Positions 14,765 through 52,400 of a DNA stretch of 64,000 nt are shown in pieces. Made by a program: the position numbers and the translations under genes. Below the pieces are notes generated by a model that was not told the DNA's origin, did not search any database, and worked only from the letters and a program-made list of their open reading frames with translations. The first letter of the stretch is position 1. Each line of letters opens with the position of its first letter. Source of the DNA: Vermamoeba vermiformis (Eukaryota); contig JBEWZL010000017.1 in assembly GCA_045837725.1 (NCBI GenBank), positions 1 through 64,000 of the forward strand, in the 5' to 3' direction.

Positions 14765-17278
14765 TTATTTTGGCGGGACAGGAGTTGCAGTCGTGGTTGT
14801 AGTGGTGGTGGTCGTGACGGCAACAGTTTGAGCAGGTTGAGGAACAGGCTGTTGAGGGGGATAGCCTTGTTGAGGAGGAGCATAATAGACAGGTTGTGGC
14901 TGATAGACGGGGACTTGGGGCACGTAGTGAATGGATTCGTAGTACGAGATCAGCTGTCGCGGCACTTCAGCCAATACTTCTTGGGCCAAGGCATAGGGAT
15001 CAGCTTTGTGCTTTCTGAACGGCACGAACTGCACGACGTCGCGTTGTGCTTCTTTCTTGCCGTGGCGCAACTTGCCGCCGTCTCCGTCCAACACTTCCAT
15101 GCTGGAGAAGTTAGCACCACCAACACCGACAATAATGATCGAGATTGGGTCATCAGAGGACTCTACGATCTCCTTGATAGTCTCATCTTGGTCTGTACGA
15201 CAAAAATATTATCAATTTTAGCTCGTGCACGTGTCATTTGTATGTTCATAACATACCGTCAATTTGACCGTCAGTGAGGATCAAGAGCACGTAGTAAGTT
15301 CTCGAAGTGGCTTTAGTGCGCTCAGCAGTCGCTCGCTGTTGCTGGAGGACCTTGGAGAAGTGAGTGGGACCTATTAATGACAGTTAGTACGTGCTTCGTT
15401 CACAGAATTAAGAATTAATCGTACCTGACAAAGTGTACTTGGCCACAGCCTCTTTGTACGTGTTCATTAGTCCTTGAAGACCAACGACTTCAGGATCGTT
15501 GTCGTTTCCGTTCAAAGGGAAGCAGTGATTTGTGCCACCGTTCTTGTAAACACCACCGAATCCGTACAACTGTATCGGCATTAGTAACGCGTACAATCAA
15601 TCGATGAGTTAAACTTACGCCAAATCGTTGATCAGTGTCGTACGGGCACACGATGGAACCAATTTTCTCAATGGCCTCTTGGTACTCGTTCAAAGTTGTG
15701 CCGAGGTAATGCAATGAGCTAGGTTGGCTGGGCGTACTACAAAGCATATTAGAAAATAGGACTTTCAAAAAAAGTTTGCTGTTCTGCTTACCCGTTGGAT
15801 CCGGTGAAGTCGACAGCGACCGTCAAGCTGACTTGAACACCAGATTGCAAGTACTGCAAGAACGAGAAGGTCTGAATGGGCTTGAAGTTGATCTTGAACT
15901 TGCCCGAGTTCTCGTACTTCTTTTTCTTCTTTTGTTTTTCGGGATTGATCACGTCGTATTCAGTGTGACCGTTCAAGATAGCATTGACAGTAGTCTATAA
16001 CAAACTTATATTAGGTCTATGTATTTAATTGGTTATTGTGTATGTGACGTACCGTGAATCGGCCAATCAGATCGTGTTTTCCGACCTTATCCCAGTCCCA
16101 AATTTCGAACAAAAGCGGTCTGTTGACGTCACCGTTGCAAAGTTCGTCCATCTTGATGCTTTCTTCGGGCCATTCAGGGTTCAAAGTGTTCTTGATGATT
16201 TGACTGCGTGATAATACAAATGAATAAAAGTTGGATCAAGAGTCTATTTCACCTTACCTCTTACGCACAAGAATAGGGTTTGTGTTGTCAGGGCGAAGCT
16301 TTTGGATAGTATAGTAAGGGTCTATATCAAACAAGTAACGTTAGAGAACAATTTAGCGGATGTGGGCGTTACGTACCAGACTTTCCGTTCAAGTCCTTGG
16401 CATCCAAGTTGCGTCCATTGCACATGAACCTATTAAATGGATCGTTAAAAAGGCTTACTATATCAATAATAATGAACTTACACCAAGCCACTGAATGGCG
16501 TTGTGTTCTCGAACACTTCTTCAGCTGAGACCGACAAAGTACCGCTGTCTGAGTGCACAACATGATTGGTGCTCGCGCGGCTAATTAATTGTACTCAGTT
16601 AGTGCGAGTTACATATGGCAGCAGTTTTTAGATCTTACCGAATTGGAAGAGTCAAAGGCTTTCCGCGTAACGCAAGCAAATCCGCTAAGACAAATTCCTG
16701 CGATTGAACAAGGTTAATATTGATCGTCTAGTATTTTAGAATATTATTCTATTATTCTAAATGCAAATGCCCAGAATCATCTGCAGTCAGTCTTTAATTT
16801 TCCGTTGGTTGATCTCGAAATTTATTTTTTTTGCATTAAATTTAAAAACACTTACGACGTTGCCAATAGGTTCAACCTTCTTTTCATCGGCATCGCCAAT
16901 GAGAACCAGAATTTTTTGATAAACCTCAAATTTGTATTCGAGTTTAATCGGAGTTTGCCAGACCGGGTTGTGGTTGTTGCTATTCAAATATTAGAATATT
17001 ATTATTACACCATTTGCGCATTGTATTTACCTGATTCTTTCGGTTCTGCCAATCTCCCTAGCCACTTGGTTATTTTCTGAAAGCGAAGCAACCAAGATGG
17101 GGTCAGATTTGGAGAGCAAATCCATTCTGAAGTAGAGTAGTTAGTATTTTTTTGTAATAAAATATTCTAAGTAGAATTCCGCAACGGATGGAGTTGTGAG
17201 TTCTTACCGAGGAAGGTCCTTCGCGCTGAAGCGAAGCTCGATCTTAGGCCGATAAACGGGGTATTGCGGAGTAGCCAT
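14765..17278 (-). CDS. Copine (two C2 domains + vWA) with Pro/Gln/Thr tail
   Basis: MDLLSKSDP, DLNGKSDPY, VAVDFTGSNG, SLHY, ISTDGQID, PISIIIVGVG, QRDVVQFVPF, LAQEVLAEVPRQL. Confidence 0.95.
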
Positions 17279-17617: not shown

Positions 17618-19278
17618 CTAATCGCCTAAAGTCAGGCACGAGTTACATTCAGCCTCGCGTACTTTTTTGAATGAATCACTTGTGCGATCATAAATCCTAT
17701 AATTTGAGAATGTGATGCAGTGGTTGCAGAATATACGATTACACGTTCTGCAATTAATGCAACACTTGTCGCACCCAGCTTCGCGTTCGCACGTATTGCA
17801 TAGGTTGATTGTAGACACTTGAGTTTGACATTTTTGACATTTGACATGTCCGCTGCAGTTTTCTTCGTGGTGAAAGAGGCACGCCATGCACAACTTTCGA
17901 TTGCAGACTGCACAATATTCCACGCAGGTCTTGCAGAACTTCTGATTTTCACATTTTCCGCAGTGCTCAATATCCAGGTCTTTGTTCATATAAACGAAAT
18001 TTTCCTCGCAATGGTGGCACTTGGCAACCTTTAATCCTAAAAGGAAATTTAAATTAGATCCGGATCCACTGAGTACTTATTACGCTTATAAGCACCTTTT
18101 CCAATGCATCCCTGTCTGCAAACTGTCCATTCGCCAATTTTCATCGAACATTTGCGACAAATATGATGCGAGCAGTTCTGGCACAGGTCACTGCATTCGT
18201 CGCAAATTTCCTTTGGACACTGGTAGCACGTTGTAGAGCAACGGAGGTGGTCTTCGTCTTCATAACGTGTGGTGCATATGTATCGCGGCTTTTCGCACTG
18301 ACATTTGATCAATTCCAGAGCGTGGATGCACATCTCAGAATTGCATCCAAAACATTCATGTTTCTCTTTGCAACACGTCTTACACGCCGAAACACCACAT
18401 TTCTTGCAGTCTTTTGAACATGAACCACATATTCGACGATCACAAGCGGAGCAACGGTTGTAGCAGTACTGGCAGAGCGGATGTGGCCAAGCTGCAAAGC
18501 AATTGCATTCTGGCGCATAATGATCTTCATAGCATTGAAGACATAATGGTGTTTTACATTCTTCGCAGCAATAACGTGTGAGCTGACGGCATTCGTAGCA
18601 ACCGAAGTGGTGCGTTAGATGTAGCAGCTTACCGTTGTCCTTCATTCAAAGTATTAGCCACCGTATTTTCGTTATAAATATATTGTACGTGGAATTGTAT
18701 TATACCTTATACTTTGTTAATTTGAGTTTTGAACTAAAAAGCGGATTTGCGTCCACGATCTGACGCCAAAATTTCTTCTCAACCCGCCTAAACTGTTTAC
18801 TTAAGGCACCAAGTCGTATGATCTTCTTCACGTAAGTTAAATCATTCATTTGCCGGAGCGTAAACAGCAAATTGAAGACTGAGAGCAGAACGTCATCTAC
18901 CAAATCTCGGATCTCCACCTGAAAGCTAAATTAAATATGGAATAACTTAAAATAATTCATATGTTATTTAATATTTCTCACATTAATTTTGAGTCGATCT
19001 GTAAAGTGATGTTCGTAAAAGATAGTTGCGATAATTACCTGCTGTTCTGTTTTCCCTTTTTTTAATTTTACTTCGCCATTTGATTTAATTTCTGATTTTA
19101 TCGTAATTTTTGCTTCGGTTGTAATATTATTCGTTGGTTCTTGCTTGATCTCGGATTCTGTTTTTATTTCCTGCTTTATCTTGCCTTCTTTTTTAATTCG
19201 CTTACTCGATCTTGCTACCACATTGTTATTGTATTCATAATCAGGCACACGAACTCGCTTTCTGGCTTGTGGCTCCAT
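17618..19278 (-). CDS. F-box-like + Cys-rich (CxxC repeat) protein, single-module paralogue of 29918-34639
   Basis: Exons splice in frame: Lys/Glu-rich N-terminus; IRDLVDDVLLSVF..LGALSKQFRRVEKKFWRQIV; KLLHLTHHFGCYEC followed by dozens of CxxC pairs. Confidence 0.7.
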
Positions 19279-20489: not shown

Positions 20490-21149
20490 CTTGTTGAATA
20501 AGCTTTGAATAATTGTGTTAAAATTTGTGCGAGAAGTGAAGGATTGGCTTCATTTAAATACCTGCGTACGGACAAATTATCGCCGACGAAGCATCGAGAT
20601 GGTACTTATTTCTCCGTTTTTCCGTGAAATTATCGGCGCCTATGCAGAATTTTGGAATTTCCTTTTTTAGCTAAATACACTCTGTAACTTACCGTTGATA
20701 GTGATAATTCAAGTCCTTGTTACAAATGTATTGGCGACACATTGGAATATCCAATTTATGCAGTGATATCGTGGTAGGCTATGACAGCCGTCGCAACCAA
20801 AATAATGAGCCAGATGCAACAGTTTTGGGTTATCCTTTCGAGTTCTGAAATTAGATTAACGCTTTTATAATAGTTCGTACCTTGTACCGGATGATTTTGG
20901 CTTCGAATGCAAAAAACTATTTGCTTGCGATGATCTGGCGCAATAATAATTTTTTCTATTTGCCTGAAGTGCGAATCTCAATAACCTTTTTTACGTGAGA
21001 TTATTCATTTTTGGCGAGGTAAATACAATTTAAAATTAACCGAAGAACATCGTCGGGCAGATCGCTCTCCAATTACCTGAAAAGTAATTAATTAATTATG
21101 CGGTTGTTTTTTTTTATTATTATAAATTTTTTCAACAATGATTTGATTA

Positions 21150-21690: not shown

Positions 21691-23681
21691 CTAGACGTTT
21701 AAGTCGGTCATACGACTGGTAATAAAATTTACCCCTTTGTACTTGTCGGGCGAAAATGTCTCTACTGGTGCCTCGGCCGGTATGTGCTTCCAGGGTAGTT
21801 GAGAGGCAATTCCTTGCGAAATTAAAGTACTATCAATATCTTGCAGAAGCGTTTCGAGCCTTTCAAAGTTCTTGAATGATTGGTCTAGTCTCTGCGCATT
21901 GAAACCAGTTTCTGTAAGATGTATTCGAGCGTGCATTGGGCCATCTTTGGTCATGTAGCTAATTGCGAGGAAATAGTCATCTTTGCTAGGGTCTCGCAGA
22001 AGATACGAACCAATAGGATTAGACCGCAAGATCTCTTCTGCTTTGTCACTGGAAATACTTCCGTGATAGAAGGTGCTGTACGCGAAGTAACGTAAGTTCA
22101 GGTTGCAACCTAATCTGAAAGAAGACTTACCAAACACTCGGATGAAATAAATCCTTCACCTAACGAATAATTAGTGTCTTTTTGACCGATCTTAAACTCC
22201 ACTTACAACGTGCATTACGCGCCGCATTCCGCCAAATTTGTTGACCAATTTTATCATACTTTCTAGGAGTACGAATTGATCGGTTGGTTGCTTCTGGTGT
22301 AATAGTTCGTAAATATTCTGCCAATAGAGACTGCTGATGGTTCGCAGCTTTTCTAAGTCGACGTAAACATGAGGGCCCATTCGCTTAAGCACCTACGTGA
22401 CCAAATGTTAGGCTTGAAACCCATCAGTTCGGAACCATACCTGAATTTCTTCCAAGAATTTGCCAATGTCATTACTGACGGTGACAACAGGTGATCCATC
22501 ACTTCGTTTGCGCTTTTTTGACTCCTCTTCGGTACCATCAAGGTAATTTAATCCAGGCACAGTGGCATTGCTCGTGGTTAACCTCACGATGTTATTATTA
22601 TTGGGACCTTTTTTGAGATTGTCCAAAGATCCATCGAACTTCTGTATTGCTATAGTTTGAATTTTGTCTAAAATTTGTTGAATAGTATGCCTTCCGAAGG
22701 TTTTGACACAAGGTAGCGATTCAAAGTCCTCTGGGTATTCTACGCCTGTCTCCAAATCTCTCATACGGCGAACAGATGCTCGAACTGTTTCTCTTGCCGT
22801 TGCTCAAACTTCTCGATTTGAATTAACATGTGATTCACGAGTGTCCCAATACCACCTTTCAAACGGTCCACTTTAGCTCTATCACCGTTGAGCGCTCGAA
22901 CGATTTTCTTGAGTTTTGCTATCTTTTGATCTACCTGTGATGTATCGCTGTTGATCGAAGGTGTGACGCCAGGATTGGAAGTTGCAACTTCATACTGCGA
23001 AAATTCAACAGAATTTTCTTCGTTAGTGTCATTTGTCGGAGACGTATGCTTCAGTTTGGGTTTTGGATTGACACTCTTGGGCTTCTTCGGGGTCTCATTA
23101 ACATAAGGCTTGTGAATAACAAAGACAGAGAGCTGAATTCCGTTCTTTGTGGTCCATTGGATGGGGTAAAAGATTGGCCCTGAGTCGCGAAGTTTAGCTG
23201 GCAATTGTTTGAACTTAATTTTGAAGGCAGAAACCGCGCTGAATTTAGGTGCACGGCTGTCAGTTTCTACCGTCCAATGTGCATCGTCTGGCACACAAAT
23301 AGCTTCTGGTTCGTCAATAAAGAACCAAAACGTTTTACGGGAGTCAACTTCAATTGCTGCATTGCAAGCAATACTACGGCGACGCAACTCCGTCTCGAAA
23401 TTCTCTGCTGTTGCTTTTTGTAGTGATGCCGCGGTTGCGTAACGCAATTCTAACAACACGTCAATAAGGTAATGCAGCTGGCCGTCCGCACTTACCCGGT
23501 GGCTGGATCGAAGGCTCTATGGATTGTTCTTCAAACGAATATTCTGCGTCAACTATATAGTAATTGATAAGCAAAGTTTTTGTTGGAGGTTGGTTCGCCT
23601 ACCCATCTGTTCAGGTGGAAACAAGGCGGCGATGTCATCTGGAACATCGAGGCCAACTGAATAAAATTTCTGTGGGTCCAT
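21691..23681 (-). CDS. Protein with unknown N-terminal domain, coiled coil and C-terminal SH2 domain; one junction (~22760) unresolved
   Basis: SH2: FYHGSISSDKAEEIL..GSYLLRDPS..FLAISY..PMHARI. Upstream ORFs are joined by GT-AG introns, e.g. EIQ|VLK and HPSVC|TFYHG. Confidence 0.7.
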
Positions 23682-24231: not shown

Positions 24232-27200
24232 ATGAATCCTGATCTACCATCGTAGGCAAAATATGACGGACTGATTTTCAATAGCGACAAGACTCTGTCC
24301 AATTTCCGAAAAAAACTGTTTTTTGAATGGAATCCTGATATGAGCAAGCCAGAGGAGGCCGTTAAATTCGCCATCACGGAACAACATGCTGAGGTAGATT
24401 GGAACGAAGTATTTCAGTCTCTCGTTGAGCTCCACTGTGCAACGCCATTTGAATTCGACTGGCGCTCACGAGCACTCAACAAAGTAATCGACATGTTCAC
24501 TGAAGATGCACTCCCTGATGCAATGGCAATCATGAACGCAGAAATGAATGGATCGAACTATCCATTTCCAACAGTCCAACTCGGACAAGCTGGTAAAAAA
24601 TACGTTGTTAGAGTACCTATTATACCTATATTTAATAGAATCTCATCTTCAGGTGGAGTGAAGTTCGTGCACAAGAACAAGTTGTTCAAACTGATCGGAC
24701 GAAAAACAATCACTGAGATCTACGGCGGAAATAATGTTGCAGCAATGAAAGTACCTCAACGCGAGATATCATCGATCAACTACTTGCTGTCACTGAACAA
24801 GCCAGGTCTTCATCTTCCATTGACAGTGATTGTCAGCTACAGCTGCTTTGCTGTCGTCGTTTCCGCACTCATTCCAATTGTAAGGAACACCGAACAACGA
24901 TAGATTATTAACGGATTGTTGTTGAATAGGACAAAACAACGATCGTGTACGGCTCTAATGATGGTGGCTCAACAGTGCACGATGACAGTGAGCCATTTCG
25001 TCAAATGATGGAAGAGATTGGCACATTGTTGAACCTCAAGAAACACGAAATCAAGTCATCAGGCAAGTGGTTGTACACAGCTGGTGACGTTGGTAAGCAG
25101 TGGATTCACGTGGCGGTTAATAGTCTTGACTCATGTCAAACAAACAGAGGGTCACGTCGGTCGCGATCATCGAAACTACTTGATTGATGTTGGTACGTTA
25201 CACTGATAGTATTGAATATGACACTCATTGTGTACTAATTTACAAACAGCACGATTGAGCCCTTCGATGGTACCAATGTCTGACAGGTAAGACGGGTTCA
25301 TGAAGTAATGACGGAGAGCTGAACTAACAACACATTTTTGAACAGTCAAGAGTGGCTTTTCAAGCAATTTAAACATCAGTTTGTAGCTGTGTGGCCAGTT
25401 GCGCTATCTGCTGATGCCTTCTCGAAGTTCGTAAGTGAACTGATCTCTTGTCAAATGGATTCGTTAAGTTCTAAAATTGCTACAGGAAAATTTGAATTGC
25501 CAATCGATGGTAGAAGCCAGCCAGATCGAAATTGAACAAGCCACAAAGCATCTCATCAATGTCGTGGTGCCTCGACTTGCTACAGAACTTGACAACGACG
25601 AGACATTGTCAGATTTCAACGCAATCAAACGGAAGTTTGAACAGACTGGCGTCAATCTCCGCTTCATTAACATTGTGTTCAAGCACATTCAACACAACAA
25701 GAGAGTGAAGTATCATTTGCTTCTGAACATGGCCGCACGTGCACTCAAATCAGACATCTTGCATATTCTTCAAGCACATGACAAACAGAGCTACATGCGG
25801 CCATTGGTTGAAATAGAGAAGCTTATTAAGAACGAATACAAGTTGGACATTGACATTTGGCGTGAATTGTCTTCTCTAGCCAATGCCGACCTTTCAGTCA
25901 ACCAAGATCTAATTCGAACCGTCGCTAAACTTTCTGGTATCACTTTGGTAATCAATGAATCGAAGCAAGTATGCATTGAAGGTATACAACCAATAGTGCG
26001 CAAGATATCTCCACCAACGCCTCTCTCCATCGAGCAACTAGAAAACTTGGTCAAAGACTATGAACGAAACTATCCAACAGCACAAATTCTTATTGAAATC
26101 AAAGAGAGATTAGCTGACGCATACATTGCTGCAGGCAAGTTCGACAAGGCTTTAGAGGTGAATGAGCAGGTACTCAAGCATCAAAGAGTTAACCTCGGAG
26201 AGATGCATACACGAACACTGGCTACGTTACATCATATTGCATCCATCTATCATTCTCAAGGCAATTACGAGAAAGCAAGATATCAATACGAAGAGTTACT
26301 TGACGTCGTTGATAAGAATCTGAAGTCCAGCCATGTACACCGATTGGTAGTGATGTCCAATTTGGCTCTGATTTACTCGGACCAAGGACAATATGACTTG
26401 GCATTAAAAACCTACGAAGAGGCTATGAATTACTACACACAGAACCAAGTTCAGCATCCGATCATCCTGACAATTACGAACAATTTGGCGGTGGTTCACG
26501 ACAACCTTGGCCACTATGAAGAAGCGCTAAAGCTTCACGAAGAAACGTACAATAATCACCTGAATCTTTTCGGAGAAACACCTGGCTTGGTTTCGACTAT
26601 CAACAACATCGGATACATCTACAGCAAGCAAAAGAAGCTCGAGGAAGCCAAAAAATATTATGAAAATGCCTATGAGCTAAGTTGTAGGCTTCTTGGACCA
26701 AAGAATATTATTAGCTTGACAGGAAAGAACAATATTGCTACGATCTTCAACAAAATGGAGAACTATGCGGAGGCATTGAAGTACTACGAAGAAGTTCTAG
26801 AGGGTGAAACTCAATTTTATGGCTTTGACAATCCAACAACTTTGATCACCAGACACAATATTGCCAACGTTTTGAAAGAGTTAGGAGATCCCGACGAAGC
26901 ACTGAAAATTTATAAAAAGATTGTTGCAGTACGAAGACGCACACTTGGAGAAGATCATCCCGACACTATAATGACGAAGAACAATATTGCACTAGTATAT
27001 TACGATATGGAACGTGATGAGGAAGCACTTAAATGCAGCCTTGCGGTTCTAGAGTCTTGTAAACAAACGTTTGGTCTAGACAAAGCACATCCGATCACTG
27101 TTTCAACGATGGATAACATTGCCAATATTTACGCAAAGCTTGACGACGATGAAGAATCGCTGAAGTGGTTCTCGTTGGTGTTGAAGTTTGAACAAGAGTT

Positions 27201-27903
27201 GTACGGAGAATATAGCCCCGAAGCCCTTGTTACTATGAGTAAGATTGGATTGGCTCACGAGAACTTGGGAAACTACGACGAAGCACTAAGACACTACAAA
27301 GTAGTTTATGATCTCAAGAAAGAAAAACTTGGGCAGAACCACTACAGCACGATGATGGCTTGGCGCGATATTGCTGATATATACAGTTACCAGAGAAAGT
27401 TCGAGGAAGCACTAGCAATCTACGAGGCTGTCCTCAGCTCTGTAGAGAAACCGCTTGATGCAAGTCTTGAAGACATCGTCGCTTACACACTGATTCATCT
27501 TGAGCGTTATGCTGAAGCAGCAGAGAAGTTTAAAGAAGAAATTAAGCTGCGTGAAGAGCATTTAGGAGAGGATCACGCTGATACTCTTGACTCGATGACT
27601 GGTTTGGCCATTGCGTACCGAAAGCAACAACAATACGACGATGCAATAAGCGTTTTGAAAATTGTTCTGGCTCGTCAGAAACGATCAAAGGAAAGCGATA
27701 TGGAAGATATTATGGAAAACAAAAACCAACTAGCACTGACGTATTTCAAGAAAGGAAGCCTCAAAGAAGCGCTAAAATTATACAAGCAAGTGCTGAACTA
27801 CCGCCAAGCCTCTGGTGCGGAGCCTGCTGATATTCAAAAAACGAAAGAAAAAATTGAAGAGATCAAAGCAAAGCTCGACAAAGGCAAGACCGAGCAACAA
27901 TAA
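24232..27903 (+). CDS. CLU-domain protein with a long array of ~42-aa kinesin-light-chain-type TPR repeats
   Basis: CLU motifs DWNEVFQSL, PLTVIVSY, IVYGSNDGG.TVH, YTAGDVEGHVGRDHRNYLID, GVNLRFI; then a dozen or more repeats like LGEDHPDTIMTKNNIALVY..EEAL. Confidence 0.85.
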
Positions 27904-29714: not shown

Positions 29715-29917
29715 CTTGCAGTTATAATGAACAAATGAGCCACGAGCCACTTAAAGGCCGACCAATCGAATGTTCGCACCCACGTGACGAATGTTCGAAA
29801 GTTCACACGTCACATGGAATGGCGAATGTTCGATGACACGTGTCAATTTGTGTCACGAAACAAATCGATTCCGACTTCGACGTTAACGGAGTACCTGAAC
29901 AATAGAGCTCTGTCGTG

Positions 29918-32900
29918 CTAATCCAAGTCCATGGGATCAGCAGCCAATAGACAATTTGCGTTCTTACTATGGTCCAACATGCATCTTCGACACATCTCGC
30001 TCTTGCAGAAATGACACGTGCTTATGCATTTTTGGCACAGTTTCAAGCCAGGCAATTCCGTTCCATTAGTGACTTCGTACTCGCACTGGGGACATTGGCC
30101 GAACATTCCCCAAATCTTGCGCCGGCAGCTGAAGCACATTTCTTCTGCCGTGTCTATCAAGCAAGCTGTGCCAGGTCGAATCTTATCATCTCGACAACAA
30201 TTCAGCTTGCACTTGCAACATCTTTGGCAAATATACTGGACGCCGTTTTGTGGGTAGTACGGCCCTAGCCAGATAAGGCCACAATGGTTGCATCTGAGAG
30301 AATAACCACTTTGGATTTCAACTGGCCTCAGCTTATCGTTGAATAGGCCACACTTGGCACAGCTGAGATGCTGCCATAAGAACAGTTGCTTGGGTGTAGA
30401 CTAATAACGACAGTTAGACCCTTCATTATTTTGTTTTTACTTACCGCTTGGCAAGCTAGCATAGCACAGTTTGAATTGTAAGGACCAATGCAAATCTACA
30501 AATATTTATTAAAAATTAATTATACGGTAGTATTCTGCCTTGATTACCTTGTCTAACTGCACTTTGGTAACTATTGAATTCCAAAAATATGTCTCTATGG
30601 TTCTTAGTTGCTTATTGACCATGCCGATATTGAGTATAGAAACAGTTCGAGAAAGGAGGGGGCATTCGGTGTCGCAAATTATCATTTCTAAAATGCGCAA
30701 CATGACTTCTTGTGGCATTCGAAGTAACAGCTCTGGCTCAACTTAATTAGCGATATGAAATTTCGTTTTAAACGAGGTAATAATACCTGGATAAGGGAAA
30801 CAGTTTTGGCAAAAGCGCGTGTCTCCAAAGAACGACGAGCATTTGTTGCAGGTGGCCTTTCTACAAATTTGACATCTTCTCGTGCAGCCACGACAGAATA
30901 GTGTTGTGCATGAATGACATTCTAAAGGCGTGCAATCTTTGCAGATGCGACGATCCATCCAAGGAGGGCAAGCACAGCGTAACTTGGCCAATTTGTGTGC
31001 ACAAGTCCGTTCTCCATCACAAACTGTCCAAACCGAACAATGGACGTCTGTTTCTATGCACTTCTGACAACTTTCGATTTTGCAATACTGACAGGGCATT
31101 ACACAACTTCGACAAAAGACGATTGGTTCACCGTCGTCACCAAGACACTCGCATGGTGTTAGTCGTGAGTATTCGTAGCATTCTAAGCACATATTTGTAT
31201 TGCGACATCCGCAGCATTGATATTTTGTTGGTTTGCCGCAATCATTGCAACCGAAATAATGATTAATATGAAGTTCTTTGAGCTACGTAAAAGTGTCAGT
31301 AAACGTTCAAAAAATAATTCAACGCATACCTTATGCTTATTCGATAGCTTTAGCTTTGACGAAAAGAACGGATTTGAATCTACAACTTTGCGCCAGAAAT
31401 GATTTTCTGCTCGTTTGAACTGCTTGTTCACTGAACCAAGTTGAAAAATCCATTTGACCGATTTGATAGTCTTCATACTCATCGAGGAGCACGTTGCCTG
31501 CATTATCAAGAGAATAATTTCGTCGGGCAGTTCAGAAATTAACCGTGGCCATGCGCCAATACAACAATAGCACATGTCATTGCAGCATCTTTGGCATATA
31601 TATTCAACTCCGTATTCGCTAAAGAAAGGGCCACGAGTATACTGGCATTTGTTGCATTCGAAGTACGAGCCAGATTTGATCTCGATTGGTCGTGATTTGA
31701 CGTCTAGCATGCCACAACCCGCACAACTGAAGTGATGCCATAAAAATAGTTGTTTAGGCTCCTTCTACGAAAAATATTAGTATCGCGCGACCACGATTAA
31801 AATAAGTTGTCATACCACCAGATCTAGGGGCATGTAATTCCGTTGGTTGATCGGAATAAATTGCACCTAAAAAAATTATTAATTAGCAAATATTTTCTTT
31901 ATCAAACTTTTTCGTACCTTATTCTCGATCTCTTTTGAAACTATGAATTTCCAAAAATAAGTCTCGGACATTTTAAGCAACTTGCTGACCATTGCCAAGT
32001 TAAGCACGGATATTACTCGGCCGAGCAAACTACGGTCTGTGTCGCAAATAATAAATTCAAAAATATGAAGCAGGATCTCGGACGGCAAGTACGGGATTTT
32101 GCCTACAAACGAAACGTTAGTTTGAATTACGCTGATAATTTTGATATTAATTACTTTGTGGCGGACACTTGCAACGGCAATTGCGGAAACATCCCTGGCA
32201 TAATGTCGATTCGCAACCTTTGCAACTTTTTTTACAAAACCAGCAAACTGGCTGGAAACATTCTTGGCAGCGTTCGAGTCTTTTAGGAAAGCAATCTGGG
32301 CACACAAGCGAACATCTGTTGCAGCTACAAATCACTTTGCTCAAAAGATTCGAACACCAATCATTACCGCAAACGTAACATAAGCGTCGATTTTCGCAGT
32401 AAATACTTTCCGAGCAACTTCGGCAATAAGTAAACAAATCGCCCGACGTATTTGTGCATCCACATTTGCTATTTCCTGAATATTCGTTGCATTTTTGACA
32501 TATACTAGTGTCACATTTATGACACGTGTCACTCGTTGGTTTGCGGCATTCAGTGCAACCAAAATAGTGATTCAAATGTAAGTCCCTCGGCTAACAAAAA
32601 GGACTGTTAGCAAATCTATAGCACTAATATTAAATTCATACCGAGAACTTGGTTGATTGTTTTAGCTTTGAGGTGAAGAAAGGATTTGAATCTACAAGGT
32701 AGCGCCAAAACTTCTGTTCGACTCGTTTGAACTGCTTGTTCACTGAACCGAGATTAAAAATTCGCAGCAAAGATTCCACCGTTTTAGCTCTTCTTGGGCA
32801 GCTAATGATCTTGAATATCTCGAGTACGATGTCATCAGGGAGTTCTGGAGGAATATGCGTCTTAAGATGAACTTCATAACATGATTCGCAAAGTATTTTT

Positions 32901-34639
32901 TTGCAGTCTTTGCACTCGATCTGACAATTGAAGCAGCTGTCATATGTCTCACAGTCGTCGCAAGGCCCATCTAACAGCGACCATTCTTCGTGACACTTTT
33001 GACATGTCGTCCGATGTTCGTTGGGCTCGTGATAAATGATCATGCAATTGACACATAGTTCTTCATTGCATAATCGACACGGGGACACGCACTTCTTGCA
33101 GAGCTTGTAGCCGTTGATCTCGTTGTAGTACTCGCAATGAGAACACTGTCCAAACATCTCTTCGTCGTTGTCTCCTTCAATCTCATCGTTGCACTGAATG
33201 CACTTGATTGTTTGTTTCGTTTTGACGATTTCTTCTTCGCTTGCCTCGTCAGAATTCCAACACTTGTGAGATTCTTTGTGGAAACATTTTTGGCAAAAGT
33301 GATCGTTGCACAAAATGCACTCGTAATCGCATTCTTTGCATAAATTGCGATTGCAGTGGTCGCAAAAGTACTCATCTTTGCATGACTTGCAATGAAACGC
33401 CTTAACTGTGCATCCACATTCAACGTGACTGCCACAGGCATGGTCTCTATGACACACCTGTGAGCGACATCCGCGGCATTCTAGCGTCAATCTCTTTTGC
33501 CCACAATGATCGCAACAAAAGCTTGAATAAAGAACGATCTGCTTGGGGTCATTCTAAAGTTTCGAATACTGCGTTAAAGTCTGTTGCATTAGTACTTGGA
33601 TCGCTATCACTTACGCGGTGTTTGTTTGGCATGTGCGCAAGGTGCAAATAAAAAGATTGTTTCGGCGACCGCTAAAAAAAATGTTAGTTACAATTATGAT
33701 ATGCAATAGTACCAATATGTTACCTCTGTTTGTAAGTTTAGCTTGAGCGTCTGTCGTACGTACTTGGACCAAAACTTGAGTTCCGCAGTGCGTAGAAAAG
33801 ACGCAGCCATGCCAAGGTTAAGTACGTCACGCATACTACTGAGACTCGTTTCTGTTGTCAAACCATGAACGTACTCGAAGACTAGTACAAGAATTTCCGT
33901 TGGCAAGCGGCGGATGCGATTTTCTGTTGTTGGTTAATGAATTGATATTAAACAATTGCGTCGCTGAACTTACCCTTTCGGAGCTCCTTTATTGTTTTAC
34001 GACTAGTTGCAACCTGAAAATAATTATAGTGGTCGAATTGAAAGAAATCGTGGGTTTTTACCTTTGACCAAGTATCGCCCGCGAGGGTGTGTCCTCCAAC
34101 AACATCGTGTTCGGCGCAGTGAAAACAAAATGTCTCCCAACATTGCACACATTCTGATGAGCACATTCTACACACTGGTGCGTGACACGCTGGACACCTT
34201 TTGACGCAGGAACGACAGCGCAGATCCGTAGTTTCGCCGCCAAGGCATTCGTGAGTGAAATCGGGAGCGCAAGACTCACAGATGTTATCGTTACATTTTA
34301 TGCACGAGAATTTGCTTTTTTCTCCGCAGTTGTGGCAGGCCAAGTAATGATAAATGTAGATGTGCTTTGGGTTATTCTTAGAAAATGTCAGAGAAGCCGT
34401 GAAGTCATAAAATAGGCAATAATTACCTTGATCCTCCTGGGAATTTTGATAGGACGTGCTTTTTTAAATACTTTCTTTTCGTTGACCAACGCGCGCCAAA
34501 ATTTGCGTTCGATCTGTCTCATCTGTCGACTGATGAGACCGAACTGCGAAATCGACCAAATTTTATTTATATGGTCACCGCTGATGGCGTATATTTTGCG
34601 ACAAACTAGCAGCAAAATGTCATCAGGCAGATCTTCCAT
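29918..34639 (-). CDS. Large modular protein (~1,350 aa estimated) with six F-box-like + Cys-rich units
   Basis: Manual splicing through ~13 short GT-AG introns gives one frame. F-box-like starts LPDDILL, LPTEILV, LPDDIVL, LPSEILL, LPDEIIL, MPQEVML, each followed by a CxxC array. Confidence 0.75.
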
Positions 34640-38794: not shown

Positions 38795-41700
38795 ATGGCG
38801 ATGAAAAGTTCTTCGGGATCAATCCCACATCCAAGCAAAATTGCTCCATTTTCAATACCGCCGATAATTCATGATTTAATAGAATTTATTGAAGAATATG
38901 GTAATAATTACTACATGAAGAAACAACGCTGATTCAATTCAATCGCGATCACAATTTTCGTTATTTAATTGAATTAAAATTCGCGTTTAACAATTTATTT
39001 ATTACAGGCGTTCAAACAGAAGGTATTTTTCGTATCAATGGTAGCTCGGAGCACATAGCCGCCATTAAGAAGCATTATAAAAAGGGTAAGATTTTATACA
39101 CAAAAAAAATCAATGCAGATCTGTTCGGTTATGTTATCTAGGCTTATATTCATTAATTTGTTATTATTTAGGCAAGAAAGTAGATCTTTTTTCTTATTCT
39201 ATTCATACTATTGCTGGCGCATTGAAGGTAAATAGGCAGATTCAGTTGGCGCGAAAATTTTCTCGCATAATGCTGAATACTACTTATTCATAAATTTAAT
39301 TTCGAATTGCCCAAACTCAACGTCATCATTTAGTCATATTTATGCGAAATGGACCCGCCCCTGATCGCTCGAATTGTTTTTGAAACTTTTGCCGTAGCTC
39401 AGAGTAAGTCTCTTTTTATTATTATTTGAATACTTTGCTACTTAAGCGTCACAATAACCTGACCGACAAATCTATCACGTAAATTGTCCCGTACTTTTCA
39501 AAAATCTGAAATTTCAACTTAGTAAATCAATTAACGATAATTAGATCGAGTGTATTAGTAATTGAAAATAATACTGCTCATTAAATTACCAATTTAGGCA
39601 TTTTGACCTCATACGCAAAATTTATTTATTCGCCGTATCTTTCAGGTTAACGATAGTATTAATTCGCTTTATATTTTTAGCGTACGAAGAAAACAAAGCA
39701 TTGCGAGTAATGCGCAAAGTACTGCAATCAGCAATGACAGCAGAGAACAAAATTATTTTAATCAAGTGCTGCGATTTACTTCAAAAAGTCTGTCAAAATC
39801 ATGCCAAGACCCGCATGACTATTGAATCCTTAGCCATAGGTATGTTATACTCGGCACCTACTAACAATTAACAATAATACTATTGCCCAAATACGCACGA
39901 TAAGAGTGCATGATTAGCGAGATCCAATGGTTTGACACGTGTCTAATTTTTTTTCCTGCGCAGTATTTGCACCGACATGGATGCGACTAGAATCGACGAC
40001 AATAGCAGACTATATGACAAATCAAAAATTACAAGCGAAATGCGTAGAATACATCATTCAAAACATCAAATATTTATTAATAGTGAGTATAATATCTATT
40101 TATTCATTCGATTAATATACTTAACTAACGATGGTATTTTTATTTGCAGAAAAAAGCAGGCGAAGAATTGTCGCGAGTGAAGCTGAAAAATATTGACTCG
40201 AGTGACGCCGAGTTCGAAGGGTTCATGAAAGCCATGCAAAGTGGCTCATTACGATCAGCGTCCAATATATTATTGAATCAATATGACCCCCGTAAGTTAT
40301 CCTAGGCATCCCTCTCGAACAGATCTAATTCGTATTTCCTTTTTTAGTAACATCAGAGAAGTTCGAACAACAAGCTGATGCGTTGATAAACAGTAAAAAT
40401 CGACAGCACAGTCGTAGTGTACGAACGATTTTTGATTTTGAAATTGATATGCCACAACGTGCTATTGATGACAACGGACCTCCTCAATCGCCCAGTGCTC
40501 GATCCAAAAATAGTAGAAGGTATAAACCTGACCTAGTTGGCCGTTATTACATGTTTCTAACCCTTTTATAGAGCTCTTCACAGTAGGCAACAAAGTGCGA
40601 TAGATCCAAGTGAAGTGCGCAGAAAAATGACCAATGAGAATCTTCCACCAGTTACCTTTACAAACACACTGCGGCGGGCGACGAGTGAAGATCCAGACCG
40701 ACAACGACCAGATCCAAGTGACTCTGACTCGACCAGCACGGTCAAAATATCGGACTCGAGCGAGGAGTTTAACAACCTTGAGCGACGAGACACGATTGGC
40801 ACGAGCTCTGACAGCACATTGATGAGCTCAGAAGTGACTGGGTCGGACTCGCTGCCAGAGGATGCGAGCACTAATAACGTTAGTGCACCTGCTTCAAAGA
40901 AGCCTCGGTCACAACACAAACGGGTCAAGAAGCGCGTGTCAAAGAAAAATGTTGGCGTGGGGCTGAGCACGAGCGATTCAGCCATTGCCTCGAGCAGCAA
41001 CACAAACTTACTTGAATCCAGCTCTACAAATGCAGAAAGTGAGGAGTCTAATAATAACAACGCGATGGCTAGTCCCAGGACGAAGAAAACTGACGTGGCC
41101 ATAACTGTCACGGCACCAAAACCAGCTCCAGTCAAGAACAGTAACGTTATCAAAGCAGCGTTAGAATATCAGGAACGAACGAAGAAGCCTGAAGAAGTCG
41201 TTACACCGCTGCTAGAAAGCAGTAAAAAGACCGAGCAAAAGATCCGCCAGAAACAAGAACAACGACAGCACCATAAAAAGTCCATCAATAACAACGTTAC
41301 TTTTGACCGAGCGCAATCAGAGTACAGTAACACTGGCGCCACGAATGACATTGAGTCGTTTAGAACCATTCACAAGTCACTTTCTGAAGGCGAGAAGAAC
41401 GGCCACGAAATCTCGAGCCCTGCGTCAGAACCGCGAGCAGTTGTGATCACCAAGACGGAGCCAATAGACGTCAAGGCCTTTGTCACGACCATCAACAAGA
41501 ACAACAGCACGAACACGAGCCCCGTTGTCCCGAAGAGTTCAGTCGGATCTCCCACCAAGACCAAAGTAGCCGTTACAAAAAGGCCCACACCCGTTACCTC
41601 AACGAATACAAGCGAGGCCAATAGCAAGACGAGCTCGCCTGCGACTAGTCCCTCGAAGGCACGAAGCAATAGTGCACCAAAGACCGTGCAACAAGTCACG

Positions 41701-42309
41701 CGCACTGGACACGCGGCTTCGACACCACCGCCCAAACAAGGCACGCCAAAGACACCTGCTAGTGGACCTTCTACTGCACCAAGCAGTGTGATAGGCGTGT
41801 CTACCAAGACTCCCGAACCAGTTGCTGCTAATAGCACCGCGCCAGAAGAGCCCAAAGTGGTCGCTACATCCGAGATCCCAAAACTTGTGGAAGAAACGCC
41901 CGTGATTGTAGAGACAGCTGTCATTGAAACTGAGCTCAAACTCGTCGAGCCACCAAAGCCTGTCGAGACTCCTACTAAGATTGCCGAGCCTAGTGACAGT
42001 ATCAGAAATGCGGTGGCGCAATCCACGCCGATCTTGAAATTCAGACCCGAATCTTCCGTGTCAAGCGCTACTTCAACGCCAAACACCTTGAATGGCAATG
42101 ATAAGCCTTCTAATGATACACCAACGCGATTAGCTGCTGTTTTGAGCCCGCGAAGGCATCAAGAGCTCACAGCAAAGCCATCCACGCAAAATTCAATCGA
42201 TGAGCTGATTCTGTCAGCCCTTTCAAAAACAGCAGTGAAAAAGGCAGATTTACCAGCGAATGATATTCTCAACAAACTACAGATATTACAGTCTGAGAAG
42301 AATAACTAG
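38795..42309 (+). CDS. RhoGAP-domain protein with a long Ser/Thr/Pro-rich disordered tail
   Basis: IPPIIHDLIEFIEEYG-VQTEGIFRINGS (arginine finger), HTIAGALK..EMDPPLI, KTRMTIESLAI-VFAPT. Confidence 0.88.
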
Positions 42310-49430: not shown

Positions 49431-52400
49431 TTACGCGTAATTAAATGACGAAGGGTGATTGCCTTTAGAGCAGCATTGACCGTTCTTGCCATCAGTAATC
49501 AACCATTGGATAGTGTTCCATGTCTTGCACTTGCCACAACGAACCTAAAAAATAAAAATTAGATCCAGATCCAAAAAGTTGTAAGTTTGAGTCTTTGGCG
49601 TAACAATACAGCGGTAAAATCATAATATGCGATCAAAAAGCAAAAAAGTAAAGAGCACAACACCTCCGATTCCCAGGTAGTCTCCTACCCCAGTACTAAG
49701 AAGGCCTGAACAAGCTTAACTTCGCTGATCGGACGGGAAGCGGTGCATTCTTGTTAGTGTGGTCGTGCCCGAGACGCTTTGCAACATCGTGTTCGGGTCA
49801 CTACTTCCACAACATAACAAGAACGCGTTCCCTCCTCCCGTACGCGAAAGATAGCTTCTTTGTTCAGATCCACATCCGATGTTAAAGTGTCACTTTAGAT
49901 TTAGAACTTACCTTCGATTCTTTGAGATAAGCCAATTCAGCTTCGTATTTGCCAATCTTGTCGCTCAGACCGATCAAGTGCTCGCTCATCATTTGCAACT
50001 GACCCTCGTAGTTGGTACGAGTCGTATCCAGATCTTCTTGCGTATGTTTTTGCTTAGCAGAGAGTTGTTCAAGTTCTTTTTCTTTCAATTCTCTTTCATT
50101 CATCATTTGCTTAAGCTTCTCTTCGAGACTTTGTTTCTTCTTGAACAGATCCATTGCTTTTTTATCGGCAACTTGAAGCTGAGAAATATATTGATTGTAT
50201 TTCTCTTCGTAATATTTTTTCAACTCTTCTTCTCGCTTCTTATCATCTTCCGATAAGTTCAATGACTAAATAAAACACCGGATTAATTTTCAGTGAAACA
50301 AACTCGTTGTGGATCTTACGTTTGATTGTTTGCCAGCTTCGTCCATAACAGTCAGATTCCAGCCATTTTGTTTTGGAACTTCCGAGCTCGCCTTTGGTAA
50401 GGTATTCTAAAAATAGAAATAAAGCTCGTTAATATCACTGTTAGCGGATGTGGCCCAAAGTCCATGACTCACCGTGGGTTCGGGTGTGGCTTGCTGTTGA
50501 TTTCCGAAGAAGTCAAGCAGGGCCTGTTCAGCTGTTGGTGCACCAGTAACATTGTTAGCAGGTACAATCGGTCGCGGGACTTGAGGGCTAGGCTGTGCTG
50601 AAGAGACGTTGGATCCGGTCAGCAGATCATTTGAGAACGGATCGAAGACCATTGAGCTGTGACGCGACGACAGTGATGTGTTTGTCGTAGAGAGTGGCGA
50701 CTATACGAATATTAGTAAGTATTCGACGCTAGAGGAACAAATGTATGCTGGAAAAATTGTGCAAGATCTGCTACTCCGAGCGGATCCACGAACTCAAGAT
50801 CTACAAAAGATTGAATATTGGAATTAGGGTTACTTACGGTAGCAGTAGAAGGAGTATCAAAGTCCATAAATGAGATCAAGTCAGGTTGGATCTGAGGCAC
50901 GACAGGGGACGGTTCTGACTTTTTGGCGGGTTGATCCAAGGTAGCAAAATCAATTAAACCTTCGTTAATAGTACCACTAGTCTTAAGCGTATTAGGCTCT
51001 TCACCATTATCGGGACTAGCTTGATGATCTTGCTTCTCGGATGCGTTTTGTTGATCGGCAGCAGGACGAGGAGTGTTGTTCAAACTTTGAGCAGCCGATA
51101 GGGCAGTATTAGCACTGATCAAATTGTTCTTCAAATCAACAATTTGTTGGTCTTTAGCTTTGCTCTTGTTAATCTCTTCTTGGTACAAAGTTGTCTAAAG
51201 AAAAAATTAGGTTAAAAATAAAATTGATAAAATTTTGTAACGGAACTTACACTTTGTTGCAATTTCTTTCTAGTATCAGCAAGCTCCGCCAACAACTCAT
51301 TTAATTGCGATTGTTTAGCATTGAACGAGTCCTGTTGAAAATTCATTCGTTATTATGGCGTACTCTGATAATGAATATTAAACGTACTCTAGAGGCCGAG
51401 AGATCTTCGATTAATTTTTGTTTTTCTTGGACTAACTTCTGGATCTCGCTGTTTAAGCTCTCAATCGTAACTTTGAACTTGGCATTCTGTTCTAACAGCT
51501 CTTTAATAGTCTCAACGTGCTGCAATTGTTCTTCGTATGAGATTGAAGGTCGCTCGGGTATCTCATTAATATTTTGAAGGAACTTCGACGATCGTTTTTG
51601 AAGATCCGCGATCTCGAACTGACCTTGCTCGTATTTTACCTTCATCGCTGTTAGTATACTCTTGTATATTATGCCACTATATTCCTTACATTTACTCCAC
51701 GAACCAGGAAGTGACCAGGCGTAACTAGCAATTCACACAGGGTGGTAATGGATGTGCTGAAGTTGTCTACCAAGTACGTCAGATCCATCAAGATAAATTA
51801 CGCGAGTTTGGAATTTACCTAATTGGGCAACTATTCTTGACAGATTAGAAATGATGGTATTATTGATCTTCTTCACGTCTCCCATAATAAACAGGTCGCT
51901 TTGTTCCGCTTTCACTTGGATCGTGTATTGCGCGTGCATTTCTGAAGTGGCAATAATTAGTATAGTCCGATCGAGTACATGTATCGAACGTACCTCTCAA
52001 GTTGTTTAAAATCACGGTCAATTGGGATTGGAACTGCTTTACGATGGGCAGCAGCTTGACTCGATTTACAATATTATCGTCAGCTAAAAATAGCAAGTGT
52101 CAATTGAATTTCCTTAGTGTAGCATAACCGTGATGATATTACTTGGGAACATGTTAATTAGGACTTGAAGGAGCTTGTCAAGATTGTTTGCGAGCTGTTT
52201 GTAGGTCAAAGCCAATGCCTCGCTAGATCGCTGTTGCTCTTCATTTTCCTCGGCTTTAACGTTCTCTTGGAACCTATTTAATTCATCGTATCATTATAAT
52301 AGATCTCGGAGTAACTATTATCCTATTCAATACCTCTTTTGTTCACTCGTGCAAAGGTTTTGGAATGACAAGACTAAAGTTCTAAAGTTCTCGATAATTG

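Follow-up and report, generated by a model that had tools for sequence, protein, structure and literature searches.

The 64-kb window analyzed here (positions 1 to 64,000 of contig JBEWZL010000017.1 from Vermamoeba vermiformis) carries on its minus strand a gene model in which six F-box-like helical modules alternate with cysteine-rich arrays. The coding region runs from an ATG at 34639 to a stop codon at 29918 and comprises 14 exons and 13 introns, with splice sites placed by reading the strand. The spliced frame of 4068 nucleotides (nt) encodes 1355 amino acids (aa) without an internal stop, the splice sites having been picked to keep this frame open. Cysteine accounts for 160 of the 1355 residues (11.8%), with 11 to 40 cysteines in each module array. 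All 13 introns are of the GT..AG type and 44 to 61 nt long, and most of them have a CTAAC/CTGAC/CTAAT-like branch site 10 to 30 nt before the acceptor. An earlier note on this DNA had described one continuous coding frame with six modules at 29918..34639. The gene model bears this out, as these coordinates coincide exactly with the end of the stop codon and the start of the ATG, and the 1355-aa frame continues across 13 canonical introns. Ten long stop-to-stop open reading frame (ORF) fragments carry the motifs quoted in that note, and the three joins that it had spelled out (RK to ENRIRRLPTEI, PPQ to SKIPYLPSEI, and YP to VEPELLLRMPQE) are all reproduced by the model; for the last of these, an alternative in-frame acceptor lies 9 nt further on, at 30733.

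Sequence reads bearing on the exons come from the coded run X1, which is only presumed to consist of RNA; the contigs, derived from a close relative, are short, of low depth, and 95% to 99% alike to the window. Six of these contigs fall on exons 1, 2, 4, 6, 11, and 14. All exons are on the minus strand. Exon 1 (34427..34639, 71 aa) contains the start codon and F-box-like module 1, which is A-like, and exon 2 (34062..34376) contains the linker NNPKHIYIYHYLACHNC and cysteine array 1. The X1 contig on exon 2 (34097-34376) is spliced to exon 1, joining 34427 to 34376, and skips exactly the 50 bases of intron 1 (34377-34426), which is the sole intron confirmed in this way. Exon 3 (33974..34013), a 40-nt mini-exon present in unit 1 only, is predicted by the model and has no read support. 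Module 2 (B-like) lies in exon 4 (33724..33923), which is entered in phase 1 and has an X1 contig on 33724-33874. It is followed by exon 5 (33615..33671), a 57-nt mini-exon (RSPKQSFYLHLAHMPNKHR); the relative P0009 has a similar peptide in an unbroken stretch. Exon 6 (32642..33553) lies in an uninterrupted 305-aa ORF and combines a linker, the long cysteine array 2, and the type A module 3 (about 32860-32642); the relative P0001 is 95% identical to it, and P0002 is 49% identical with a matching array-then-F-box order.

The second and third units proceed in the same manner. Exon 7 (32155..32590) carries the linker PRDLHLNHYFGCTEC and cysteine array 3, exon 8 (31918..32102), again with phase-1 entry, carries the type B module 4 (IICDT), and exon 9 (31816..31866) is a 51-nt mini-exon predicted by the model. 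A linker, the short cysteine array 4, and the type A module 5 share exon 10 (31330..31764), to which the relative P0007 is 92% identical. Exon 11 (30787..31282) holds the linker LKELHINHYFGCNDC and cysteine array 5; it has an X1 contig on 31077-31225 and is 90% identical to the relative P0014. Exon 12 (30548..30741, alternative acceptor at 30733) contains the type B module 6, and exon 13 (30445..30495) is another 51-nt mini-exon known from the model. Exon 14 (29918..30400) ends the gene with a linker, cysteine array 6, and the stop codon, which is crossed by an X1 contig (29910-30058). The three mini-exons of 51 to 57 nt are multiples of three in length, and the frame alone is silent on their inclusion.

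Each module begins at one of six [LM]P[DTSQ][DE][IV] anchors, from which a helical motif of about 50 residues extends to a terminal FW. When the six are aligned, P, E, F, W, and V are invariant. Downstream of every module comes a linker that fits P[KR]x[LI]..H[HY]FxCxxC (e.g., SPRDLHLNHYFGCTEC) and leads into the CxxC arrays. Local alignments of the modules scored against 60 shuffles give z-scores of at least 7.3 for all 15 pairs, with 18.6 for module 1 versus 5, 20.3 for 2 versus 6, 38.6 for 3 versus 5, and 58 for 4 versus 6. Based on these scores, modules 1, 3, and 5 were assigned to type A and modules 2, 4, and 6 to type B. One phase-0 intron follows each A-type motif and precedes its linker (introns 1, 6, and 10), each B-type motif is followed by two introns around a 51- to 57-nt mini-exon (introns 4 and 5, 8 and 9, and 12 and 13), and a phase-1 intron separates each A-type array from the next B-type motif (introns 3, 7, and 11). 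The gene model has no intron where a B-type array joins the next A-type motif, and unit 1 carries one extra intron (intron 2). The earlier claim of an (A-B)x3 alternation with recurring introns is supported on both counts, since the module z-scores agree with the intron positions and phases. The repeat order and the intron pattern imply that an A-B unit was duplicated within the gene. When the units are compared as DNA, units 2 and 3 are about 74% identical along 229 nt and match in three more short pieces. Unit 1 has no match to unit 2, and a single 20-nt match links it to unit 3. This makes the triplication an old one.

F-box-like modules and cysteine arrays

The modules follow the pattern LPxE[IV]L..I[F]...V[NS]KQ[FL][KR]..E..FW, with an insertion of about 8 to 10 residues after helix 1. 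Compared with the F-box consensus for helices 1 and 3, they have the LP pair in five of six cases (MP in module 6) along with the invariant E, F, W, and V. The Pfam F-box family PF12937 matches five of the six module fragments at E-values of 0.00065 to 0.47 (0.47 for module 1, 0.0065 for module 2, 0.00065 for module 4, and 0.039 for module 6), and it matches the relative P0017 at E 0.0004, all of them sub-threshold. The F-box assignment made in the earlier note is thus in keeping with the sequence pattern, but every Pfam score is sub-threshold and the structural matches are weak. F-boxes of protists are described as highly variable, and those of validated Skp1 interactors as often having insertions between helices, in a study of Dictyostelium Skp1 interactors (PMC9485057).

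A model of module 3 was built with AlphaFold2 (AF2) from a nine-row alignment and reached a predicted local distance difference test (pLDDT) value of 73.2, with helices at residues 9-20, 28-34, 42-58, and 60-67. Among the 40 rows listed in a Foldseek search with this model, 15 are F-box proteins, all weak: seven of Skp2, two each of FBXO3 and D3, and one each of Cdc4, FBH1, FBXL2, and a plant leucine-rich repeat (LRR) F-box ligase. F-box proteins, Striga MAX2 among them, account for 10 of the 21 rows of a VIA structural comparison. These 10 align at what we take to be the F-box positions of the respective proteins. The best of the 10, the Skp2 chain 1fs2_A, superimposes on the module 3 model with Z 4.3 and a root-mean-square deviation of 2.1 A over 47 residues (chain 105-152).

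Several results weigh against this assignment. No Pfam F-box score reaches the gathering cut-off of 24.3, an operational threshold rather than a biological property, the best being 19.9 bits for module 4 and 20.5 bits for P0017. Module 3 has no Pfam F-box match at E<=1, and one of seven other module-bearing family proteins matches a Pfam F-box at E<=0.1. A profile of the six modules retrieved FBXL2 from the PDB sequences at only E 0.5, and a nine-sequence profile searched against 5.8 billion sequences found no canonical F-box protein. Neither of the two structural models (module 3 and exon 10) gave a Foldseek row at E<=0.001. In the VIA comparison the unrelated three-helix protein PupR ranks at the top with Z 5.0, above Skp2, and a wide VIA search with the two-domain exon 10 model returned helical matches of a generic kind (Z<=5.6), among which FBXO42 took rank 35. 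Finally, the Leu-Pro pair is replaced in module 6 (MP), in a paralog within the window (LV), and in the relative P0011 (SH); in a paper on baculovirus LEF-7, this pair is called essential for Skp1 binding (PMC6105029).

The most serious alternative is that the modules are not functional F-boxes and instead form lineage-specific three- or four-helix spacers that pack on the linker and the first zinc unit. The protein would then be a multi-zinc-finger scaffold or a nucleic-acid or protein binder with no link to Skp1-Cul1-F-box (SCF) ligases. The sub-threshold sequence matches, the structural matches within the range expected of any small helical bundle, and the loss of the Leu-Pro pair in some family members are all compatible with such spacers, and the constant linker motif that every helical module precedes would fit an intramolecular partner. 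However, the motif fits the F-box pattern at both of its ends (LPxEIL..IF and V[NS]KQF.R.E..FW), the Pfam family seen repeatedly among the modules is PF12937, and at least seven kinds of F-box protein are found in the 15 of 40 weak Foldseek rows, aligned presumably at their F-box positions. Module 1, the window paralog, and P0016 moreover have the motif at the N-terminus, as is standard for F-box proteins. We consider the spacer explanation unlikely, though not negligible, and homology of the modules to the F-box likely. That at least one of the putative modules binds Skp1 is somewhat more probable than that none does.

In cysteine arrays 1, 3, and 5, as in the paralog, the first unit has the spacing C-x2-C-x7-C-x2-C-x4-C-x2-C, which is that of a binuclear B-box cross-brace. 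A profile of the A-type arrays compared with PDB sequences matched B-box1 of PML (2mvw) at E 0.0068, with BRE1 RING and FYVE weaker. Pfam searches of the arrays gave sub-threshold matches to ANCHR-like B-box, ZZ, and IBR families only. The ANCHR-like B-box PF22586 was obtained at E 0.0067 to 0.012 (0.0067 for exon 2 and 0.0078 for exon 7), scoring 16.1 to 16.9 bits in three proteins and 13.6 in a fourth (cut-off 27), and ZZ (PF00569) was obtained with exon 11 at E 0.0011. In the AF2 model of exon 10 (overall pLDDT 65), the array part consists of beta-hairpins at pLDDT 73-79, for which Foldseek listed weak FYVE, PHD, LIM, and zinc-ribbon rows and no clear fold. A comparison of exon 11 with the named clusters of the Atlas gave no usable match. 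The N-terminus (MEDLPDD...) shows no evident signal peptide, which favors cytosolic or nuclear zinc binding over disulfides, and the arrays would accordingly be expected to bind zinc.

Integrity of the six-module gene

Of the five joins between modules, two do not depend on splicing, since array 2 and module 3 share the 305-aa ORF of exon 6 and array 4 and module 5 share one 193-aa ORF. In the ORF reading, no in-frame ATG precedes the motifs of modules 2 and 4, and these motifs therefore require exons further upstream. A single six-module gene is the most economical reading of the locus and in our judgment a very probable one; all six modules would then be present in one mature transcript.

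It is improbable, in comparison, that the locus is a tandem array of at least two separate genes, or that it yields mainly shorter isoforms, with the joins between A-type arrays and B-type F-box-like motifs being wrong. Some observations do point in that direction and count against a single gene. Retention of intron 3, 7, or 11 would bring in a stop within 2 to 14 codons, so that an A-type array could end a protein; module 6 starts with a methionine (MPQEV), and P0017 has one two residues ahead of its LP; and single-module genes exist in the family. Moreover, intron 1 alone is confirmed by reads, leaving 12 of the 13 introns without read-shown splicing, and no X1 contig bridges a junction between an A-type array and a B-type F-box-like motif. 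Separate genes would nevertheless have to accommodate modules 2 and 4, which lack an in-frame ATG before the motif, and there is no intergenic room for promoters. The fusion of modules 2-3 and 4-5 inside single exons means that multi-module proteins arise regardless, and donor, branch, and acceptor sites are good at each of the three A-to-B junctions, where the introns have the usual size and share phase 1.

Raw RNA reads from a second organism, organism B (runs X4-X6), amount to 2, 3, and 7 reads on 5.3 kb, all of them only partly aligned. They lie near 29766-29953, mostly just downstream of the stop codon, are mostly 90% to 95% alike to the window, and have consistent loose ends at 29766 and 29865. 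Their source may be a related transcript or else a repeat, and they are uninformative on expression in the organism of the window.

Relatives, paralogs, and selection

A phmmer search with exon 6 (304 aa) recovered 11 proteins at E<=0.001 among 1.84 billion representatives. These relatives are short ORF calls of 69 to 371 aa in NCBI, Logan, and JGI records, either unnamed or labeled "hypothetical protein". The corresponding search with exon 11 recovered one near-identical relative only (P0014), and the nine-sequence motif profile gave four matches among longer proteins, all within the family. Metagenome contigs scanned with the family alignment and with P0002 contained no relative, nor did viral contigs queried with P0015 or genome contigs queried with P0016. 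The family is very small and lineage-restricted. No family combining an F-box with B-box arrays and no protein with six F-boxes is described in the literature covered, which included few subscription papers.

The adjacencies of the six-module gene recur in a more distant relative. In P0002 a B-type array leads into an A-type motif, and in P0017 an A-type array is followed by an in-frame intron and a B-type motif. Both records list a longest contig of 7417 nt, and the two may share that contig, judging from this entry alone. A species at roughly 40% to 60% identity probably also has a multi-module gene. Single-module members are present as well. One complete protein, P0016 (389 aa), comprises a single motif, the linker, and a long array. 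A single-module paralog lies within the window at 17618-19278 on the minus strand, 11 kb from the six-module gene, and is modeled with four exons, 471 aa, and 61 cysteines. It consists of a Lys/Glu-rich exon 1 (uncertain), one A-type motif with LV in place of LP, a linker, and two array exons. A phase-0 intron is found at the matching place after its motif, and it is collinear with P0016 (142/337 identical residues). A decayed copy, at about 20709-21075 on the minus strand, begins like an F-box (DLPDDVLRLILNCIY) and soon runs into an in-frame TAA; a linker and one CxxC unit that ends early follow. It is probably a pseudogene remnant and lies just upstream of an aldo-keto reductase gene.

Comparison with relatives provides evidence of constraint. 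The X1 contigs differ from the window at 22 of 1095 covered coding bases, 11 of the differences being synonymous and 11 non-synonymous. With about 211 synonymous and about 893 non-synonymous sites, the ratio of non-synonymous to synonymous divergence (dN/dS) is about 0.24, a value drawn from a small sample of low-depth contigs, and the gene is under purifying selection. The cysteine scaffold is strongly conserved across P0001, P0002, and P0017, in which 35/35, 30/31, and 26/27 cysteines are kept at array identities of 211/224, 95/186, and 58/141, respectively; the corresponding identities of the F-box-like motifs are 49/50, 30/49, and 24/50. In P0007 the array is identical at 70/78 positions and the F-box-like motif at 47/50. 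In the closest relatives (P0001 and P0007), the internal F-box-like motifs are thus at least as conserved as the arrays. P0007 keeps six of the eight aligned cysteines of array 4; the replacement of the other two speaks against the zinc-array interpretation to the extent that not every cysteine can be a ligand. It is highly implausible that the locus represents a repeat array in decay or without function, with a biologically meaningless open frame: a family copy does carry an in-frame stop (about 21075-20709) and hardly any reads from the RNA runs of organism B fall on the gene, but 4068 nt of open frame, the dN/dS of about 0.24 versus a close relative, the near-complete conservation of cysteines at 41% to 51% array identity, and the spliced contig in run X1 all argue otherwise.

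Possible mechanism, known systems, and genomic surroundings

Like its counterpart in canonical F-box proteins (Skp2, FBXL2, Cdc4, FBXO3, and D3/MAX2), the module is helical, spans about 50 aa, starts with LPxE[IV]L..I[F], and ends with V.K.[FW]......[FL]W. Canonical members have this motif at the N-terminus together with a separate putative binding domain, as do module 1 and the single-module paralogs. Unlike them, the six-module protein carries the motif six times along a single chain, five times internally. About 8 to 10 residues are inserted after helix 1, and the Pfam scores are all sub-threshold. The downstream domain of F-box proteins is usually an LRR, WD40, Kelch, or FBA domain, whereas here it is a CxxC array. 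The A-type arrays are comparable to the B-boxes of TRIM proteins and PML and to the ANCHR-like B-box (PF22586) in the cysteine spacing of their first unit, with all scores below the curated cut-offs. They differ in that there is no RING and no coiled coil and in that each module strings its units together into an array of 11 to 40 cysteines. Other array units lean weakly toward IBR, ZZ, FYVE, or BRE1-RING.

The closest precedent for repeated motifs is found in baculovirus LEF-7 proteins, which have three putative F-box domains (PMC6105029). The likeness is conceptual only and consists in more than one predicted F-box motif per polypeptide, each with a Leu-Pro pair. As in the present gene, the additional LEF-7 motifs are predictions without demonstrated function (PMC6105029). 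LEF-7 differs in being viral and about 290 aa long, with motifs close together and a Leu/Cys-rich tail, and in having neither alternating zinc arrays nor introns. The architecture, which the earlier note did not recognize, is therefore not wholly isolated, since single-F-box members of the family exist (one of them 11 kb away) and LEF-7 has three putative F-boxes. A further lead, given by a language model, is a Nucleocytoviricota cluster of F-box domain-containing proteins, which is the second nearest Atlas cluster for P0016 (feature score 0.91); the match comes with no alignment and no E-value, and its recognition value of 2094 is under the 2300 mark. An origin from giant viruses was set aside given the spliceosomal introns, the host-like G+C, and the lack of relatives in the scan of viral contigs.

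Under the explanation that we favor, the product would be a 1355-aa cytosolic or nuclear protein of one short-intron eukaryotic gene. The ancestral unit would have comprised an A-type F-box-like module, a B-box-like zinc array, a B-type F-box-like module, and a second zinc array, and this two-part unit would have been duplicated within the gene. Each three-helix module may dock Skp1 and hence Cul1-Rbx1, and the cysteine arrays may fold around zinc as B-box-, IBR-, or ZZ-like cross-brace or ribbon units that bind substrates or self-associate. The six-module protein would thus be a multivalent SCF adaptor or scaffold with up to six Skp1-docking sites between zinc arrays. Alternatively, only some of the motifs may still bind Skp1, with the others acting as structural spacers. 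The single-module members look like SCF substrate receptors of the ordinary kind that have acquired a new Cys-rich domain for binding. Taken as a whole, the explanation of one gene, a duplicated unit, Skp1-docking modules, and zinc arrays has in our estimation an even chance of being correct. A role as a Skp1 sponge or in defense is conceivable, but no result speaks for either, nor did the analysis find support for the idea of a host-defense or ubiquitin effector, which the earlier note had raised.

F-box proteins are usually described as having one F-box and one substrate-binding domain, and the B-boxes of PML and TRIM proteins self-associate. To our knowledge, no cellular F-box protein is known as a polyvalent SCF scaffold. 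It is improbable that all six putative F-boxes work; if they did, each chain could carry up to six Skp1-Cul1-Rbx1 complexes while its B-box-like arrays self-associate, and nature would have in this protein a polyvalent SCF scaffold on which a ubiquitin-ligase assembly or condensate is built. Should the modules bind Skp1, the gene would raise the questions of whether an SCF receptor can be multivalent, whether internal F-boxes work, and what the new Cys-rich recognition or assembly domain binds. If they do not, it would encode a lineage-specific zinc-finger repeat protein of modest interest. The system is tractable, as a distance of 11 kb within one genome separates a single-module member from the six-module one, and mutating the Leu-Pro pair is an obvious control.

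The locus has a G+C content of 0.41-0.45, matching its surroundings. An arginyl-tRNA synthetase gene is directly upstream of the six-module gene, and other neighbors include genes for CAF1B/HIR1, a cytochrome P450, a copine (14768-15208, minus strand), an aldo-keto reductase, an SH2 domain that is not obviously of the Spt6 type (21694-22155, minus strand), CLU, a TPR_12 protein, and PPP1R21, the C-terminal domain of which is encoded at 49885-50265 on the minus strand. The copine, the SH2 domain, CLU, and PPP1R21 would be unusual in a typical fungus, although the short introns of 44 to 61 nt with CTAAC-like branch sites are fungus-like, and the combination is an odd one. ARAGORN found no tRNA genes within the 64-kb window. 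A lone 5S rRNA gene is present at 49652-49770 on the minus strand (Rfam RF00001, 104.7 bits). The TPR_12 protein corresponds to an intronless 811-aa ORF at 25468-27900 on the plus strand, full of TPR_12/TPR_10 repeats (E 2e-92) and situated in a stretch of strong AT skew (0.21). The highest AT skew of the window (0.25) is found in a 582-aa open frame at 40561-42306 on the plus strand, which is rich in Ser, Thr, Pro, and Lys, matches no Pfam family, and probably encodes a disordered protein or a mucin-like region.

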